Origin: a virus
Taxonomy: Duplodnaviria; Heunggongvirae; Uroviricota; Caudoviricetes
IMG/VR virus record: IMGVR_UViG_3300033121_001869
Location: 45,076-109,075 of that record
Strand: one strand, 5' to 3'
Length of the DNA stretch: 64,000 nucleotides
Position 1 is the first letter of the stretch. Every line of letters begins with the position of its first letter. Shown here one piece after another: positions 44,846-53,540 of this stretch. A program made the position numbers and the translations under genes. The notes under the pieces were generated by a model. It did not search any database, was not told where the DNA came from, and saw only the letters and a list, made by a program, of their open reading frames with translations.

Positions 44846-45568
44846 GTGAAAAATGTTAAAAAATATAGAGATTTCTGTAATGAAGAAATAAACCTAAAAA
44901 ATGCACTTATAGGTGGGGCAATAGCCGCATCCACAATTGGTTGTGATTCAACAGAATTAAATAAGAGACAAGGCAGTGAATGGATCACAACACCAACTCC
45001 AATTGAAAGCGCAACCGAAATAAAAGAACTACCAAATAAATTTGAGATGGATGAAGTTATAATGACAATAGGAACAGATATGAATATTAATGTTGGTGAC
45101 CAACAAGTAGGAAAAGTTGAAGAAAGAACGCTAAATTGGGGTAAAACATTTGAATACTTTGATAATAAAGGTCACAAAATAGCAACAGGAAAAGAAAAAG
45201 CACTGAGTTTATTAACTACAATAGATATCTATGACAGTAATGATAAAAAAATAGGAACATTTGAAGAAGAATTATTTAAAAATTTCTTCTCTATAAAAAC
45301 ATATTATTCAATAAAAGATGCCTCAGGCAAATTAATTGCAGAATCAGAAAAACTGGATTGGTTATCAACTAATATAGAAATATTCTCACCGAGTGGTGAA
45401 ATTCTATGTAAAATGAAAAGACCGGCATTTAACTTACTAAGTGATAGTTGGAAAGTGGAGGTACTTGGAAATATTGATAAACGTCTAATAGTTTTCATAC
45501 CTTGTTATAAAACATCAGCCGATAATGAAAGGAAAAGTGAGGATGATAAAAATAACAATGAAGACTAA
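44846..45568 (+). CDS. LURP-one/scramblase-like protein with N-terminal tag and lipobox-like segment
   Basis: MKNVKKYRDFCNEE-INLKNALIGGAIAASTIG-C; repeated beta-hairpin units; DKRLIVFI. Confidence 0.65.
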   Translation: MKNVKKYRDFCNEEINLKNALIGGAIAASTIGCDSTELNKRQGSEWITTPTPIESATEIKELPNKFEMDEVIMTIGTDMNINVGDQQVGKVEERTLNWGKTFEYFDNKGHKIATGKEKALSLLTTIDIYDSNDKKIGTFEEELFKNFFSIKTYYSIKDASGKLIAESEKLDWLSTNIEIFSPSGEILCKMKRPAFNLLSDSWKVEVLGNIDKRLIVFIPCYKTSADNERKSEDDKNNNED

Positions 45569-48808: not shown

Positions 48809-49014
48809 GACTTCTTCTTAACTTTCTTAGGAGGAGTTGTTTTAAAAGAAACTACTTTCTTTTTATTAATTGTTGGCATTCCAGATTCATCTTTTCCAAT
48901 TTCTTTAACAATTGTTTTTTTATTTTTAAATCTACCCATATAGATTGTATCACCAATATTTACTGGAATATTTATATCTTCATTTAATTCTATGAATGAT
49001 TTTATATACTTCAT
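48805..49014 (-). CDS. small hypothetical protein, N-terminal tag
   Basis: MKYIKSFIELNEDINIPVNIGDTIYMGRFKNK. Confidence 0.7.
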   Translation of the reverse strand: MKYIKSFIELNEDINIPVNIGDTIYMGRFKNKKTIVKEIGKDESGMPTINKKKVVSFKTTPPKKVKKKS

Positions 49015-49030
49015 ATTAGGTATATATATT

Positions 49031-49462
49031 AAGTTATGGAAGTAGGACTCGAATTTATAATTACGGCTTAATACTTATTCTTTGAGTATATATCCAAGCT
49101 TTAAATCTTTTTTCTGAAGCTATGTCTTCTTGTATTTTATATTCAACATATTTTCTATTTGTCATTTTAGATGTATGCTCAAATCTATCTTTGTATTTAA
49201 AATACGATTCACTTAAATTATATACTTCTTGACCGTCTTTAGTGTCAAAAATAAATACAAATTTTTCATCTAAAATATTTCTTATTTTATCAGATAATTC
49301 AAAGTCCTTATTTTCTCTGGCAATATTTCTATCATAGATTAATTCATCTATAAATTTTCCCTTAAAATCTCCCTCTGATATTATCATAATAATATCAAAA
49401 ATACAAATTAATATTTAAATCAAGAAATGAAAGTTATGGAAGTAGGACTCGAATTTATAATT
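49031..49462. repeat. 32-bp perfect direct repeat at 49031-49062 and 49431-49462
   Basis: aagttatggaagtaggactcgaatttataatt twice, 400 bp apart. Confidence 0.95.
49061..49387 (-). CDS. stand-alone CysRS C-terminal (anticodon-binding-like) domain protein
   Basis: RNIARENKDFELSDKIRNIL...DTKDG. Confidence 0.65.
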   Translation of the reverse strand: MIISEGDFKGKFIDELIYDRNIARENKDFELSDKIRNILDEKFVFIFDTKDGQEVYNLSESYFKYKDRFEHTSKMTNRKYVEYKIQEDIASEKRFKAWIYTQRISIKP

Positions 49463-50121
49463 TTCTGATTTTTATTTAACCATTTTCTTACTGCATTATC
49501 ACTAACACCATATTTTCTACTTGTTGCTGAATAACCAAAATCCTCTATTTCCTTTTTTAGATCTTCGATGTTAGGTCTTTCAACTTTTCTTCTTTTTTGT
49601 CCATAACATTTAGAACAAATTTCAGATTTTCTATCTTTTTTAAGTCCGCACTTACAAATGTTTCTTTTTTTTAAATTTCGTCCAGCAAATGTATCTAATC
49701 CAGCATTGCAATTAGGACAAACAATTCTTAAATTTTGTAGTCTGTTATCATCACAAACTCCATTTATATGGTCTAAAATTAATGCAATTTTCATACCATT
49801 CCAATTCTCGTCTTGACCACATAAGCAACATTCTCGTTTTAAAATACCATCATTATATAATCTATCTTTTAGATGTCCTCTACTAAATGTTGATTTTTCA
49901 ATTAAAATTTCACTAAGTGGTATTTTAGTCTTCAACATCAACATTTTTGAGTAATTTTTTGTAAAATGTTCCGTTGAAATATCATATAGTTTTATAAACT
50001 TTCTCAGAGTAGAGAAGTTCGACCCAGCAATTCCTAATCCAAGTTTATTTAAAACTTCTCTTTGAGTTTTTGATTCTGAAATTATTTTCATCAAATTTTC
50101 TTTAGACCAATTTGCTTTCAT
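49420..50121 (-). CDS. HNH homing endonuclease
   Basis: CCLCG, LDHING..DDNRLQNLRIVCPNCN. Confidence 0.9.
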   Translation of the reverse strand: MKANWSKENLMKIISESKTQREVLNKLGLGIAGSNFSTLRKFIKLYDISTEHFTKNYSKMLMLKTKIPLSEILIEKSTFSRGHLKDRLYNDGILKRECCLCGQDENWNGMKIALILDHINGVCDDNRLQNLRIVCPNCNAGLDTFAGRNLKKRNICKCGLKKDRKSEICSKCYGQKRRKVERPNIEDLKKEIEDFGYSATSRKYGVSDNAVRKWLNKNQKIINSSPTSITFIS

Positions 50122-50196
50122 ATATATTTTTTATTTTTATATATTAAAATGTCTAACTTCTATACCCATTTAGATTCGGATGTTTTACCAATTTTG

Positions 50197-50270
50197 CTAC
50201 CATGGGTGGATTCGAACCAAACCATTATGAGGGTCAAAACCTCATGTCCTGCCAGTTAGACGACATGGTA
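50197..50270 (-). tRNA. tRNA-Gln(TTG)
   Basis: TACCATG acceptor, loop TTTTGAC, GGTTCGAATCC; no encoded CCA. Confidence 0.88.
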
Positions 50271-50276
50271 AATTTG

Positions 50277-50350
50277 ATGTCCTGTTTGGAATTGAACCAA
50301 AATTTTCACTTTCAAAGAGTGATGTAATAAAACCATTATACCACAGGACA
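50277..50350 (-). tRNA. tRNA-Gln(TTG)
   Basis: TGTCCTG acceptor, TCACT-CTTTGAA-AGTGA, TTCAATT T-loop. Confidence 0.85.
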
Positions 50351-50356
50351 ATTTAG

Positions 50357-50428
50357 TTATTGTGTCAAGATTCGAACTTGAATTGCCAACTTCAAAGGAA
50401 GGAGTGTTAGCCATTACACTACACAATA
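50357..50428 (-). tRNA. tRNA-Gln(TTG), two mismatches in the anticodon stem
   Basis: TATTGTG acceptor, CCTTC-CTTTGAA-GTTGG, TCAAG-TTCGAAT-CTTGA. Confidence 0.7.
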
Positions 50429-50430
50429 AT

Positions 50431-50460
50431 AAAAAAACCCAGTCAAGATTGACTGGGTTT
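50431..50460 (-). terminator. attenuator terminator 1
   Basis: AAACCCAGTCA-ATCT-TGACTGGGTTT plus TTTT on minus strand. Confidence 0.9.
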
Positions 50461-50483
50461 AATACTATATTTTTAGCAATAGA

Positions 50484-50540
50484 TTACCTGTCAACCTCTC
50501 GGATGTTATTTTGCTGCTGTTGCTGAGTAATCATTTTCAT
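50484..50540 (-). CDS. Gln-sensing leader peptide MKMITQQQQQNNIREVDR
   Basis: five consecutive Gln codons (CAG CAA CAG CAG CAA); 3' end carries the antiterminator AGGTTGACAGG. Confidence 0.85.
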   Translation of the reverse strand: MKMITQQQQQNNIREVDR

Positions 50541-50611
50541 AAACTTTCTATTTTATCTTTTAATTTTTTAACTGTTGAGAATATCTTTCCAAAATATTCT
50601 GCTCTTTCAAG

Positions 50612-50684
50612 TAGGGTATGCCAGACTCGAACTGACGATCTCATGGTCCCAAACCATGTGCGTTACCAACTACGCTAATACCCT
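50612..50684 (-). tRNA. tRNA-Pro(TGG)
   Basis: AGGGTAT acceptor, CATGG-TTTGGGA-CCATG, TTCGAGT. Confidence 0.9.
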
Positions 50685-50685
50685 A

Positions 50686-50757
50686 TATATGATGCTAATT
50701 CGAACCCACAAACCAAGGCCTCAAAAGCCCTGCTCTACCAATCGAGCTCATCACATC
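50686..50757 (-). pseudogene. degenerate tRNA (anticodon TTG), T-stem unpaired
   Basis: GCTC/GAGC D-arm, AGGGC-TTTTGAG-GCCTT, TTCGAAT with mismatched stem. Confidence 0.55.
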
Positions 50758-50764
50758 AATTTTG

Positions 50765-50835
50765 CGGTCCCTCCCGGAATCGAACACGGGATCACCACCC
50801 ACACTGGTGGTACTCTACCCTTAAGCTAAGTGACC
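50765..50835 (-). pseudogene. degenerate tRNA with non-canonical 6/8-nt anticodon loop
   Basis: GGTCACT/AGGGACC acceptor, CCACC-AGTGTG-GGTGG, TTCGATT. Confidence 0.55.
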
Positions 50836-50894
50836 ATATCCAATTCTATATTTTACCCATTAAACCGGTCTATGAATTGGTAACATTCTCCTTG

Positions 50895-50966
50895 CGGTCC
50901 ATACGGGACTTGAACCCGTTCCTCCAAGTTGACAGCCTGGAAGCTTAACCCATCGCCTAATGGACC
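50895..50966 (-). tRNA. tRNA-Asp(GTC)
   Basis: GGTCCAT acceptor, CCAGG-CTGTCAA-CTTGG, G73. Confidence 0.85.
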
Positions 50967-50971
50967 AGTTG

Positions 50972-51046
50972 CGGACATGAAGGGATTCGAACCCTCGATC
51001 TCGCTCCGTGACAAGGAGGTATGTTTGACCTCTACACCACATGTCC
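50972..51046 (-). tRNA. tRNA-Asp(GTC)
   Basis: GGACATG acceptor, loop TTGTCAC, GGGTTCGAATCCC, G73. Confidence 0.88.
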
Positions 51047-51092
51047 GTTCTGAGAGTTCCTTTTCCTCCACGGAAAGTCACTCACAACCTTG

Positions 51093-51177
51093 CAGTAACG
51101 ACGGGAATTGAACCCGCTACAATATATTCCAATCACAGGGCGACAACCTGCTGCACCAACCATTATGCGCCGCTACT
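51093..51177 (-). tRNA. tRNA-Asp(GTC) with a 17-nt variable region
   Basis: AGTAGCG/CGTTACT acceptor, GCAGG-TTGTCGC-CCTGT, GCGGG-TTCAATT-CCCGT. Confidence 0.7.
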
Positions 51178-51744
51178 ATTTTTAATAAAATTATTTCTAT
51201 AATCAATAACTTTATCAATAATTTCGTGTCTATATTTACTATGTAAATAATTATGATGTGTTGCACAAAGTGGTATTAAATTCTCTGGGTTATTGTTAAA
51301 TTTATTACCATCAAAATGATGAACATCTAATAATTTACTCTCCTCACACACAATACATAAATGCTTATGATTTTGAAAACAAATTTCTCTATATTTTATA
51401 GAATATCGACTTTTTCTTTTATCATATTCATCTATGCTTTTCCAATTTCCGTTGTTTTTACCACTTCTAAACAATGTATTCGAACAAGATATTGAACACG
51501 TTGCTCTTTCTCTTTTACCACCATTAAAAGTTTCAAAATTTTTTTTACAAATTGGACATTCCTTTTCTATTTTTTCATATTTTATTTTTTTACTTTTTCC
51601 ATTGTCAAAATGATCTGTATTTAAATTAAAATCATTTATAATTTTTTTAGCCTTTGAATATCCAACACCATTTATCGGGAGATTTATAATTTTACAAAAA
51701 TCTGAAAGACTATAACAGATATTGATAATTTCATTATAATTCAT
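51163..51744 (-). CDS. HNH endonuclease inside the tRNA cluster
   Basis: CIVCEE..LLDVHHFDGN..NN.PENLIPLCATHH. Confidence 0.88.
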   Translation of the reverse strand: MNYNEIINICYSLSDFCKIINLPINGVGYSKAKKIINDFNLNTDHFDNGKSKKIKYEKIEKECPICKKNFETFNGGKRERATCSISCSNTLFRSGKNNGNWKSIDEYDKRKSRYSIKYREICFQNHKHLCIVCEESKLLDVHHFDGNKFNNNPENLIPLCATHHNYLHSKYRHEIIDKVIDYRNNFIKNSSGA

Positions 51745-51807
51745 AAAACATTTTAATTTTATATATTTAAATGTCTTACTCCCGCTATTTGGGTCAAACT
51801 TATGTTG

Positions 51808-51882
51808 TCTGAAAAGTAGGATTTGAACCTACGATCTCTTACTTCCAGGGTAAGCGAGGACTCCGAGCTCCTCCATTTTCAG
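51808..51882 (-). tRNA. tRNA-Pro(TGG) with C33
   Basis: CTGAAAA acceptor, CTTAC-CCTGGAA-GTAAG, GTAGG-TTCAAAT-CCTAC. Confidence 0.82.
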
Positions 51883-51896
51883 TTTTTTACGCAAAC

Positions 51897-51931
51897 AAAA
51901 AACCCAGTTTGTTTTTTAGACTAACTGGGTT
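51897..51931 (-). terminator. attenuator terminator 2
   Basis: AACCCAGTT-N13-AACTGGGTT plus TTTT on minus strand. Confidence 0.85.
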
Positions 51932-51953
51932 CACCTTATTATAAACGTATTAA

Positions 51954-52052
51954 TTATCCATTTATACCAACACAGTTAGTCTCCAATCGATCGGGTTGAT
52001 CGACAACAACCTGCGGTTGTACTTGGTTAACTATGTTGATTACTTTGTTCAT
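51954..52052 (-). CDS. leader peptide MNKVINIVNQVQPQVVVDQPDRLETNCVGING
   Basis: TAATATATA 6 nt upstream; contains AGACTAACTG complementary to the terminator 5' arm. Confidence 0.78.
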   Translation of the reverse strand: MNKVINIVNQVQPQVVVDQPDRLETNCVGING

Positions 52053-52151
52053 TTTTATTATATATTATAATTGTTAAGTCCCTTTTGGACATTTTTTATT
52101 ATAGAATACAAATATAGATAAGTTTTTTCAAATAAAAAATTATTTTTGAAA

Positions 52152-53540
52152 TTAATTTCCAATTTCTTTTAACCAATCACTCATTTCTAATGATTTCCAA
52201 GCACCCTCCAATTCATCATCTGACATTTCTGTTAGATCTGTCAAATTAAAATTAGAAGACGCTGATAGTAATTCTATTATCTCTTCTCTATTCATAGTAT
52301 TAAATGGAGAATCAAAAGATTCAAATAGCCTAATATATCTCATACTCTCAGAACTCTCAATATATTGGAATTGTCCAGATTTTAACATATCAACATCTCT
52401 TTGAGATGTATGGAATAATTTAACAAAATTATCTAATACTTTAAATGTTCTCTCAATATCCTCTGGATGAAAAAGAAGTCCATATCTTTTTAAATTATCA
52501 TTAGATATTGCTGTAATAATATTTCCAACTTTTCCGATAACTTTAAATCCATCCGGACATTTTGTAACAATATCATGGAAAGCAAAGCTAAATTCACAAT
52601 TTTCCAAATCTATACCATCAAATAAAAAAGATTTATCATAACTTGTTAATTTTTTTGAACTTTGTACAAATTTACCTGAATCTTTTACCTCACCACCATG
52701 AAAAACAACCATTGATTGCATACCGTAACATAAACCAAGAATCGGACACTTAAGTATCTCCAAAGCCTTTTTACTTGCCAATGGCTCCGACTCATCTAAT
52801 GGTTTTGTAAATCTATAATCTGATCCAGATAAGATAGCACCAACGATATTATCATTAGAATTAATTCTACTAACATCTTCTGGATTTGTAGCAACAATAT
52901 ATTCAATTCCTCGCATTTTTAAATATTTTAAAATATTATGTAAAAAACGATTCTCTTGTGGTTTTGCATTATTTACTACCATAACTTTTTGATCCCCAGA
53001 AAGAGGAGCCAATTTAACATCTTCAGCAACATATGTTTCTGGATATTTATCTATAAAAGAGAAATCTTTTGTCTGAAATTTAAATCCAAAGGCATTTATA
53101 AATTTAGTCAAATCTTTTATAGAATCATCACATAATCCAAAGTGTGTTTCGGGATCCGCTTTTGATCCTATACCATTGTAATGGATAACATCTAATTTAT
53201 TAGGTTGTTTTACACTAAATTCGGATACCATACTATCACCATATGTAATATCAATAAGGATTTTTAGCTTATTATCCTCTTTAACAAAATGCATATCAAA
53301 TTCTAATGTATCGGGCTCACCATCTGCCAGAGCATTTCCACCAAATTCTTCCATTGTATTATGCTCATAGCAAATTCTTAGAATATCTATCTCTCTAGTA
53401 ATGGTATCCTTTTTCATGGAAAATTCACCATTAGACGTATAAATTCTGAATTTTTCAGGTAAGAATTTCTTTATAGCCTCATCATAAATAACAACCGAGT
53501 CCTCATGATTAGATTCATAGAAAGATTTTAAATACTTCAT
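52152..53540 (-). CDS. class I glutamine amidotransferase (GuaA N-domain-like) fused to tagged modules
   Basis: ILSGS, PILGLCYGMQ, LLFHPE triad; MKYLKSFYES; internal MRYIRLFES at 52343. Confidence 0.8.
   Translation of the reverse strand: MKYLKSFYESNHEDSVVIYDEAIKKFLPEKFRIYTSNGEFSMKKDTITREIDILRICYEHNTMEEFGGNALADGEPDTLEFDMHFVKEDNKLKILIDITYGDSMVSEFSVKQPNKLDVIHYNGIGSKADPETHFGLCDDSIKDLTKFINAFGFKFQTKDFSFIDKYPETYVAEDVKLAPLSGDQKVMVVNNAKPQENRFLHNILKYLKMRGIEYIVATNPEDVSRINSNDNIVGAILSGSDYRFTKPLDESEPLASKKALEILKCPILGLCYGMQSMVVFHGGEVKDSGKFVQSSKKLTSYDKSFLFDGIDLENCEFSFAFHDIVTKCPDGFKVIGKVGNIITAISNDNLKRYGLLFHPEDIERTFKVLDNFVKLFHTSQRDVDMLKSGQFQYIESSESMRYIRLFESFDSPFNTMNREEIIELLSASSNFNLTDLTEMSDDELEGAWKSLEMSDWLKEIGN

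Follow-up and report, generated by a model that had tools for sequence, protein, structure and literature searches.

Why should a short open reading frame (ORF) with five consecutive glutamine codons, followed by a U-tailed terminator, stand directly ahead of three tRNA-Gln(UUG) genes in a phage genome? The question is raised by a 64,000-nucleotide (nt) stretch of DNA (hereafter the window; positions 45,076 to 109,075 of IMG/VR record IMGVR_UViG_3300033121_001869), which is part of the record of a large wastewater/freshwater phage of the Caudoviricetes, with 182 kb in all, 27.7% G+C and 26 tRNA genes. Coordinates are given as window positions, and the leader, the terminator and the tRNA-Gln genes all lie on the minus strand. 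We refer to the terminator unit at 50540-50431 as T2 and to the upstream operon head as T1; a third unit, T3, lies outside the window. An earlier note on this DNA had proposed that T2 follows the layout of the ribosome-coupled attenuators of the trp and his operons. Here, we arrive at a probability of roughly three in four that T2 is a functional, Gln-codon-specific, ribosome-mediated leader-peptide transcription attenuator that gates the three tRNA-Gln(UUG) genes, a reading built on sequence comparison and predicted RNA structure. Translation of the leader, stalling of the ribosome, termination at 50431 and Gln-dependent read-through are the steps that this reading predicts.

Anatomy and predicted folding of the Gln unit

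The ORF with five Gln codons, the U-tailed terminator and the three tRNA-Gln(UUG) genes described in the earlier note are all in place (Table 1), as judged from tRNA calls by ARAGORN and Rfam, duplex energies from RNAduplex and conformers folded with ribosome masks. The leader reads ATG AAA ATG ATT ACT CAG CAA CAG CAG CAA AAT AAC ATC CGA GAG GTT GAC AGG TAA, and its last Gln codon is followed after 13 nt by an antiterminator box, with 23 nt between the stop codon and the terminator hairpin; both distances match the geometry of trpL. The terminator hairpin AAACCCAGTCAATCTTGACTGGGTTT has 11 base pairs (bp) and a loop of 4, with a predicted energy of -15.9 kcal/mol. When the box AGGTTGACAGG is set against CCAGTCAATCT of the terminator 5' side, 10 of the 11 positions pair, one of them as G.U, with a single A.A mismatch, which reproduces the pairing reported in the earlier note; the resulting duplex of box and 5' arm amounts to -12.1 kcal/mol.

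Folding with ribosome masks gave the expected switch between terminator and antiterminator. In the absence of a ribosome, the fold contains both the terminator and a protector helix of 50532-50519 with 50495-50482 (-28.1 kcal/mol). Placing the ribosomal A site on Gln codon 6, 8 or 10 leaves the box free, and in the nascent RNA it pairs with the 5' arm and loop of the terminator (-14.0 kcal/mol), so that the antiterminator appears in the minimum free energy (MFE) structure of the nascent RNA. In the conformer with the ribosome placed on the stop codon, the box is hidden and the fold is that of the terminator.

The features that make up this switch are unlikely to have arisen by chance. At the phage's Gln frequency of 2.8%, the run QQQQQ has P = 1.7e-8 per peptide window, with 91 such windows possible. 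Complementarity between the upstream region and the 5' arm of the T2 terminator stands at z = -3.0 against shuffles; when the genome's 28 strong terminators are ordered by upstream complementarity, the three that precede tRNA arrays take ranks 1, 2 and 4, and the T2 leader is the best of 15 leaders for the T2 arm (rank 1). The codon choice is also skewed, with CAG making up 3 of the 5 leader Gln codons against 16% of Gln codons genome-wide; the sister leaders in the same way use CCG, which accounts for 8% of the phage's Pro codons. Codons ending in G are read by U34 tRNAs via wobble, and their use should sharpen the sensor.

The genes behind T2 appear to depend on it. A further tRNA-Gln(UUG) at 50757-50688 (minus strand), between tRNA-His and tRNA-Pro, is a pseudogene that neither ARAGORN nor Rfam calls; it equals L075:2552-2626 minus 5 nt of the T arm and is otherwise identical. 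Since the other Gln tRNA of the operon is thus a pseudogene, all working Gln tRNAs of the phage sit behind T2. By reading the sequence, no promoter motif was found between T1 and T2, and none between the T2 terminator and the tRNAs; together with the mere 2 nt that separate the first tRNA from the U-tract, this implies that the three intact Gln tRNAs are expressible only via T2 read-through. Two U.U mismatches were seen by reading the sequence in the anticodon stem of tRNA-Gln no. 1.

Table 1. Positions of the T2 elements and of other features discussed in the text
Feature	Position	Strand	Remarks
Leader ORF, 18 codons plus stop	50484..50540	-	MKMITQQQQQNNIREVDR and stop; ATG 50540, TAA 50486-50484
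Regulatory Gln run, codons 6-10	50511..50525	-	CAG CAA CAG CAG CAA; read from sequence
Segment 1, putative protector 5' strand	50519..50532	-	pairs with 50495-50482 (GAUUACU:GGUAAUC and CAAC:GUUG); MFE folds
Segment 2, antiterminator box	50487..50497	-	AGGTTGACAGG; near-copy of terminator 3' arm TTGACTGGG; ends at the stop codon
Small spacer hairpin, stop codon to terminator	50463..50478	-	enclosed by the antiterminator; folding
Predicted intrinsic terminator T2	50431..50460	-	11-bp hairpin (segments 3 and 4; 50460-50435) plus U7 (50437-50431); segment 3 at 50456-50446
tRNA-Gln(UUG) no. 1	50356..50428	-	ARAGORN; Rfam 55.1 bits; begins 2 nt past the U-tract
tRNA-Gln(UUG) no. 2	50276..50350	-	ARAGORN; Rfam 61.8 bits
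tRNA-Gln(UUG) no. 3	50196..50270	-	ARAGORN; Rfam 49.8 bits
tRNA-Pro(UGG)	50684-50611	-	followed by a 70-nt spacer before the leader ATG
3' gene remnant, 26 codons	50537..50617	-	..ERAEYFGKIFSTVKKLKDKIESL and stop; blastn match; protein match E 3.8e-7
T1 operon head	51897..52116	-	-7 box TATATTTG 52116-52109; leader, 32 codons, 52052-51954; box GACTAACTG 51981-51973; terminator 51932-51897
Third attenuator candidate (T3)	L037:545-675 (G000:C1:173444-173574, outside the window)		leader MEKMNLNMNNLRTLTVVINTLCINRTMVSGYANFRFES, terminator, 15-16 tRNA genes
Free-standing HNH-type endonuclease genes	49420-50121 and 51163-51744	-	within the tRNA operon

Proposed mechanism

In the proposed mechanism, transcripts would originate from the upstream array, which has its promoter and its own attenuator at 52116-51897. 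They would have to pass the T1 attenuator (Gln/Pro/Asp) before reaching T2, which would place the Gln tRNAs under two nested gates. If the Gln codons are read smoothly, the ribosome would proceed to the stop codon and cover the box AGGUUGACAGG, the terminator would form, and transcription would stop 2 nt before tRNA-Gln. If usable Gln-tRNA is scarce, slow decoding of CAG and CAA would stall the ribosome on codons 6-10, where it would melt the protector helix and leave the box free 13 nt downstream. The box could then pair with the 5' arm of the terminator before the 3' arm has been made, allowing the polymerase to read through and to produce more tRNA-Gln, and the outcome would be negative feedback on tRNA-Gln supply. 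Since the terminator beats the antiterminator at equilibrium, the choice between them would have to be kinetic, and it is likewise kinetic in trp attenuation.

Codon-matched leaders ahead of other tRNA arrays

The predicted design of T2 recurs in a family of 15 distinct leader/terminator/tRNA units, taken from this genome and about a dozen related phage contigs that were reached by looking for relatives of two proteins encoded beside the tRNA array, the HNH endonuclease and the glutamine amidotransferase (GATase). In the related contigs and at the other two array heads of this genome, a -7 box TAnnTTTG, a promoter type of the Bacteroidota, comes first. It is followed by a 5' region containing TAATATATA, then by a leader ORF (22-38 codons), a hairpin with a U-tail, and the tRNAs. 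The distance from stop codon to hairpin is 10-29 nt across the family and 20-29 nt in 15 of 16 units, and in the Gln/Pro/Asp leaders the last regulatory codon lies 14 nt from the box.

In all 15 scored units, the residues of the leader match the set of tRNAs downstream. Leaders of the types ..PQPMQDQD.., ..QQPQDQD.. and ..PQQQPDQDPD.., and also PQPQDQD, precede Gln/Pro/Asp tRNAs (with or without Met and His), ..NLNMNNLRTLTVVINTLCINRT.. (NLRTVIC) precedes Leu, Arg, Asn, Ile, Thr, Val and Cys tRNAs, and ..FSKSFKWFSHKF.. (KFWH) precedes Lys, Trp, Phe and His tRNAs. In the NLRTVIC leader the match extends to isoacceptors, the Leu codons CTA, CTG, CTC and TTA corresponding to Leu tRNAs with anticodons UAG, CAG, AAG and UAA. 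The best-window binomial P for the match between leader and tRNAs ranged from 1e-9 to 1e-5, with a value of 0.011 for the weakest unit, L039.

Each leader also carries a box that is complementary to the 5' arm of its own terminator, being a near-copy of the 3' arm, and the box varies together with the arm (box/arm pairs GACTAAC / GTTAGTC, TCTGAGGGTTC / GAACCCTCAGA, CGGGTTTTG / AAAACCCG, TGGGTTTTG / CAAAACCCA and AAGTTCGG / CCGAACTT). The T2 box GGTTGACAGG and its own 3' arm CTTGACTGGG follow the same plan. Since MAFFT mis-registered L019 when the T1 family was aligned, box and arm were compared not by counting covariation column by column but by duplex energies for each unit and a permutation test of cognate against non-cognate pairings. 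Cognate pairings of box and arm were stronger than non-cognate ones, with no value as extreme as the one observed among 20,000 permutations.

T1 and T3 are the sister units of T2 in this phage. The T1 leader, MNKVINIVNQVQPQVVVDQPDRLETNCVGING, contains ..QVQPQVVVDQPD.., and its terminator carries GTTAGTC; downstream follow tRNA-Pro, an HNH gene, three tRNA-Asp genes, tRNA-His, the Gln pseudogene and tRNA-Pro. Units homologous to T1 were found in nine further distinct contigs. The array behind T3 consists of Leu, Arg, Asn, Ile, Thr, Val and Cys tRNAs, and individual Leu codons of its leader fit individual Leu isoacceptors. The sequence AAAAGGGACTTAA has exactly two copies in the genome, both ahead of the two array-head leaders. 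In L003, a T1-type leader persists with neither terminator nor tRNAs.

Copies of the T2 module in related phages

Copies of T2 were found by exact look-up of a neighbouring 32-amino-acid (aa) ORF. The module of 110 nt, from the ATG to the U-tail, occurs in three genomic contexts, each time ahead of an array of Gln tRNAs only. It follows a gene stump in the window and in L005, L073 and L076 (three UUG tRNAs as cargo in the window), an intact gene of 83 aa in L072 (cargo UUG, CUG, UUG) and, in L075, a tRNA-Pro plus 43 nt ending in TTTTTAATATATAAAGAAGAA-ATG (cargo UUG, UUG, CUG, UUG, UUG). The leader of L075 is preceded by the general gene-start motif of the phage, TTAATATATA.

The leader peptide is identical in L005, L072, L073, L075 and L076, and peptide, box and terminator stems are invariant across the copies. 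The modules differ by one synonymous CAG/CAA exchange (codon 9), at three sites in the spacer between stop codon and hairpin, and by U7 versus U6 in the tail. One spacer change, in L075, turns a G.U pair of the small hairpin into A-U, and the remaining spacer changes fall at unpaired positions. In the arrays of the window, L072 and L075, the cargo Gln tRNAs are mostly 47-74% identical to one another; across phages, tRNA-Gln no. 3 of the window and the tRNA-Gln that directly follows T2 in L072 share 99% identity. Between three and five Gln isoacceptors with divergent bodies are thereby kept per phage.

Taken together, the copies indicate that the T2 head is a conserved module that travels with Gln tRNA arrays while upstream context and cargo are exchanged. 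The trp/his-type layout put forward in the earlier note is thus backed by the module in its three contexts, by the family-wide design and by the ribosome-masked folds. Of the two features that it proposed to check in related phages, the poly-Gln run is conserved, and the T2 helices show no compensatory change at a divergence too small for covariation.

Further searches added nothing useful or no related leader: the terminator 20-mer and close relatives of the GATase and of ORF108 were looked for in viral contigs and the box-to-arm pattern in JGI metagenomes, each to no useful effect, and a pattern search with the tRNA-Gln D-arm returned 23 mostly unrelated phages, none with a poly-Gln leader. 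A relative with a 93% GATase match (L006) has unrelated sequence downstream and was uninformative.

Weighing the proposed attenuator against other readings

Several points weigh against a working attenuator at T2. The T2 copies differ at about four sites, so that their conservation is weak evidence, and the helices of T2 carry no compensatory change. The protector helix, the least secure part of the unit, is short and weak in the MFE structure (7 + 4 bp), and the copies show no sequence variation in it. The antiterminator, at -13.8 against -15.9 kcal/mol for the terminator and with an A.A mismatch, must win kinetically. The window copy has no TTAATATATA and stands behind a broken gene, which makes its translation less certain than that of the L075 copy, and coupled transcription and translation in the presumed Bacteroidota host are assumed. 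The locus is present in three metatranscriptome-labelled wastewater runs, in which single contigs cover both T1 and T2; being assembled contigs, these RNA-labelled runs cannot reveal transcript ends or exclude DNA carry-over. Finally, the distant relatives L019, L020, L027 and L031 carry tRNA-Gln inside a Gln/Pro/Asp array with no separate Gln leader, from which we take the T2 unit to be a lineage-specific addition.

A plainer account would hold that T2 is an ordinary terminator ending the upstream tRNA unit, that the ORF is a chance frame or a relic, and that tRNA-Gln is made by unregulated leak-through. Terminators of the T2 type are indeed common in the genome, the 18-codon ORF adjoins a gene stump of 26 codons, and the gene that follows the homologue of the truncated gene in LR756502.1 begins with ..IVQPQQVESEREV, in which 7 of 13 positions match ITQQQQQNNIREV. 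The relic origin was the reading we favoured at first, and it was dropped after L072, which keeps the 18-codon ORF beside an intact neighbouring gene, and after L075, in which no such gene adjoins the ORF and a gene-start motif of its own precedes it; the ORF is therefore not debris. The Q-rich gene of LR756502 has no match in this genome. A chance frame would further have to bring together a QQQQQ run with P of about 1e-8 per window and a box complementarity of z -3.0, in a design that also heads the other arrays examined, and we regard this account as unlikely. Translation would be dispensable altogether if T2 were an RNA-only switch, responding to a protein, a small molecule or a tRNA bound in the manner of a T-box, with the open frame incidental. 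The alternative structures exist independent of translation, and a UUG anticodon might, in principle, base-pair with the CAR repeats. Yet a cmscan search of 49000-53000 (E <= 1) yielded no T-box (RF00230) and only sub-threshold matches to unrelated terminator-containing families, and none of the curated Rfam leader families (His, Trp, Thr, Leu, Phe etc.) reached its gathering threshold, the best match in the region being the rnk_pseudo leader at 27.1 against 55 bits. The frames of the family are moreover always open, with an ATG present and the stop codon at the distance from the hairpin noted above, and they differ by an in-frame indel and by synonymous exchanges (CCG/CCA and CAG/CAA between the window and L003). 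The leaders also hold a variety of codons that correspond to a variety of tRNAs, in contrast to the one specifier codon read by a T-box; of the readings considered, we give this one the least credence.

What the attenuator would sense is a separate matter. A stalled ribosome cannot distinguish low tRNA from low charging, as is textbook knowledge for trp and his, and the same device could report glutamine starvation or general translation stress, serving for timing or shut-off and not as a tRNA homeostat. A GATase gene just upstream of the operon in every relative would suit such a role. Extra tRNA, on the other hand, does not relieve amino-acid starvation, and the one-to-one correspondence of leader codons and downstream anticodons throughout the family suggests that what is controlled is tRNA supply, which leaves starvation sensing, in our view, decidedly improbable. 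Within the preferred reading, a Gln-codon attenuator that responds to tRNA supply, one may tentatively imagine that the T2 head is a portable sensor of acute tRNA-Gln loss, for example to a tRNA-Gln-cutting nuclease of the host or of a competitor, and that it would switch on sequence-diverse replacements as a counter-defence homeostat. We consider this extension doubtful, and its link to host anticodon nucleases is speculation.

Neighbouring features of the operon and the phage

The gene remnant upstream of T2, which the earlier note had missed, is the end of a small gene (about 75-83 aa, ..WDNWEHM..ERAEYFGKIFS..KDKIESL) truncated by tRNA-Pro, and its TGA overlaps the ATG of the leader (ATGA). 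The gene is intact (83 aa) before the same leader in L072 and intact also in the huge phage LR756502.1, L009 and L010, with two IMG/VR contigs among the intact cases; homologues were noted in L007, L009 and L010. At the level of sequence, the remnant is evidence that insertion into genes rearranges the tRNA/HNH blocks. Homologues of the two HNH endonucleases recur in at least six other phage contigs, again within tRNA arrays, and these enzymes therefore probably drive the shuffling of tRNA blocks. Two candidate elements in this region were set aside: an E. coli-type promoter inside the ORF (TTGACA-19-TATAGT) has poor spacing, the host-type promoters here being TAnnTTTG, and a hairpin AGAATATTTTGGAAAGATATTCT at 50600-50578 lies within the coding remnant, is absent from its homologues and was put down to chance.

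The general gene-start motif, in the form T(T/A)AATATATA, has 42 copies in the genome, most of them 4-8 nt ahead of a long ORF's ATG; examples in the window are those at 50147, 51769 and 53555 (minus strand). It is probably either a phage-specific promoter that gives near-leaderless mRNAs or a translation start signal. The tRNA-Asp(GUC) at 51092-51177 (minus strand) is 86 nt long and has a low Rfam score of 39.9 bits, and several further tRNAs of the phage and its relatives measure 84-90 nt; these long tRNAs may reflect insertions or introns.

Two further elements resemble T2 in part. At L043:1700-1963 (plus strand), an internal unit with an ORF MKNFTYISVVIATGAGRLVERLSYVM and a terminator AACCCAGTCTCAAAAGGACTGGGTTT lies between Tyr and Ile(UAU)/Gly(UCC) tRNAs. 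At G000:C1:178330-178490 (plus strand), outside the window, a TATATTTG box is followed by a mini-ORF MIQVRNRNNTEQI with stop codon, a terminator and then a protein gene rather than a tRNA. The terminator of this second element has an upstream complementarity of z -3.0 (rank 3 of 28), and the element may be another attenuator or a small RNA.

Comparison with known systems

That amino-acid biosynthesis and synthetase genes can be controlled by leader-peptide attenuation is textbook knowledge. Our full-text literature search returned no report of leader-peptide attenuation of tRNA genes, and the statement of the earlier note that no such case is described thus holds for the searchable literature. 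E. coli pheV was considered as a candidate and discarded; the 106 nt upstream of it in MG1655 contain neither a Phe-rich ORF nor a terminator. T2 would accordingly represent a known mechanism applied to a new class of regulated gene, distinguished by being monovalent, operon-internal and portable.

If this is true, tRNA genes form a new class of attenuation target, with direct feedback on decoding capacity, and phage tRNA arrays would be regulated by demand, per amino acid or per set of amino acids, instead of being constitutive codon-usage patches. Should the portable-sensor reading hold as well, a monovalent attenuator nested in a multivalent one would amount to two-level, per-amino-acid control of viral tRNA supply. 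T2 would show how such a sensor spreads, its head being kept while upstream context and tRNA cargo are swapped. It is also the cleanest test object of the family, being limited to a single amino acid and five codons within 110 nt, and its natural variants carry three to five cargo tRNAs.

Among known regulators, the T-box resembles T2 in coupling a decision between terminator and antiterminator to tRNA status and in controlling genes of translation supply. It differs in binding uncharged tRNA directly, through one specifier codon and the conserved T-box sequence, and in controlling synthetase, biosynthesis and transport genes; T2 has no T-box motif, and an ORF with a codon run stands in place of the specifier. 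The leaders of the ilvGMEDA and thr operons (ilvL, thrL) resemble the sister units T1 and T3, in which codons for several amino acids are likewise combined in one leader. In comparison with ilvL and thrL, T2 is monovalent, and the sister leaders cover as many as seven amino acids, together with individual isoacceptor codons.

The closest parallels are hisL, pheL and trpL. Like these, T2 has a short leader (translated in the known systems, predicted to be so here) with a run of one codon type that is cognate to the regulated function. T2 also shares with them a mutually exclusive antiterminator and terminator, to which a weak, predicted protector would be added, a stop codon placed such that a finishing ribosome would mask segment 2, and a choice that would be made kinetically. 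There is neither sequence homology to the enterobacterial leaders nor a match to an Rfam leader family. Unlike hisL, pheL and trpL, the T2 attenuator would act on tRNAs and not on biosynthetic enzymes, with only five regulatory codons; it is carried by a phage, within a tRNA operon, and it would receive transcripts that have already passed another attenuator.

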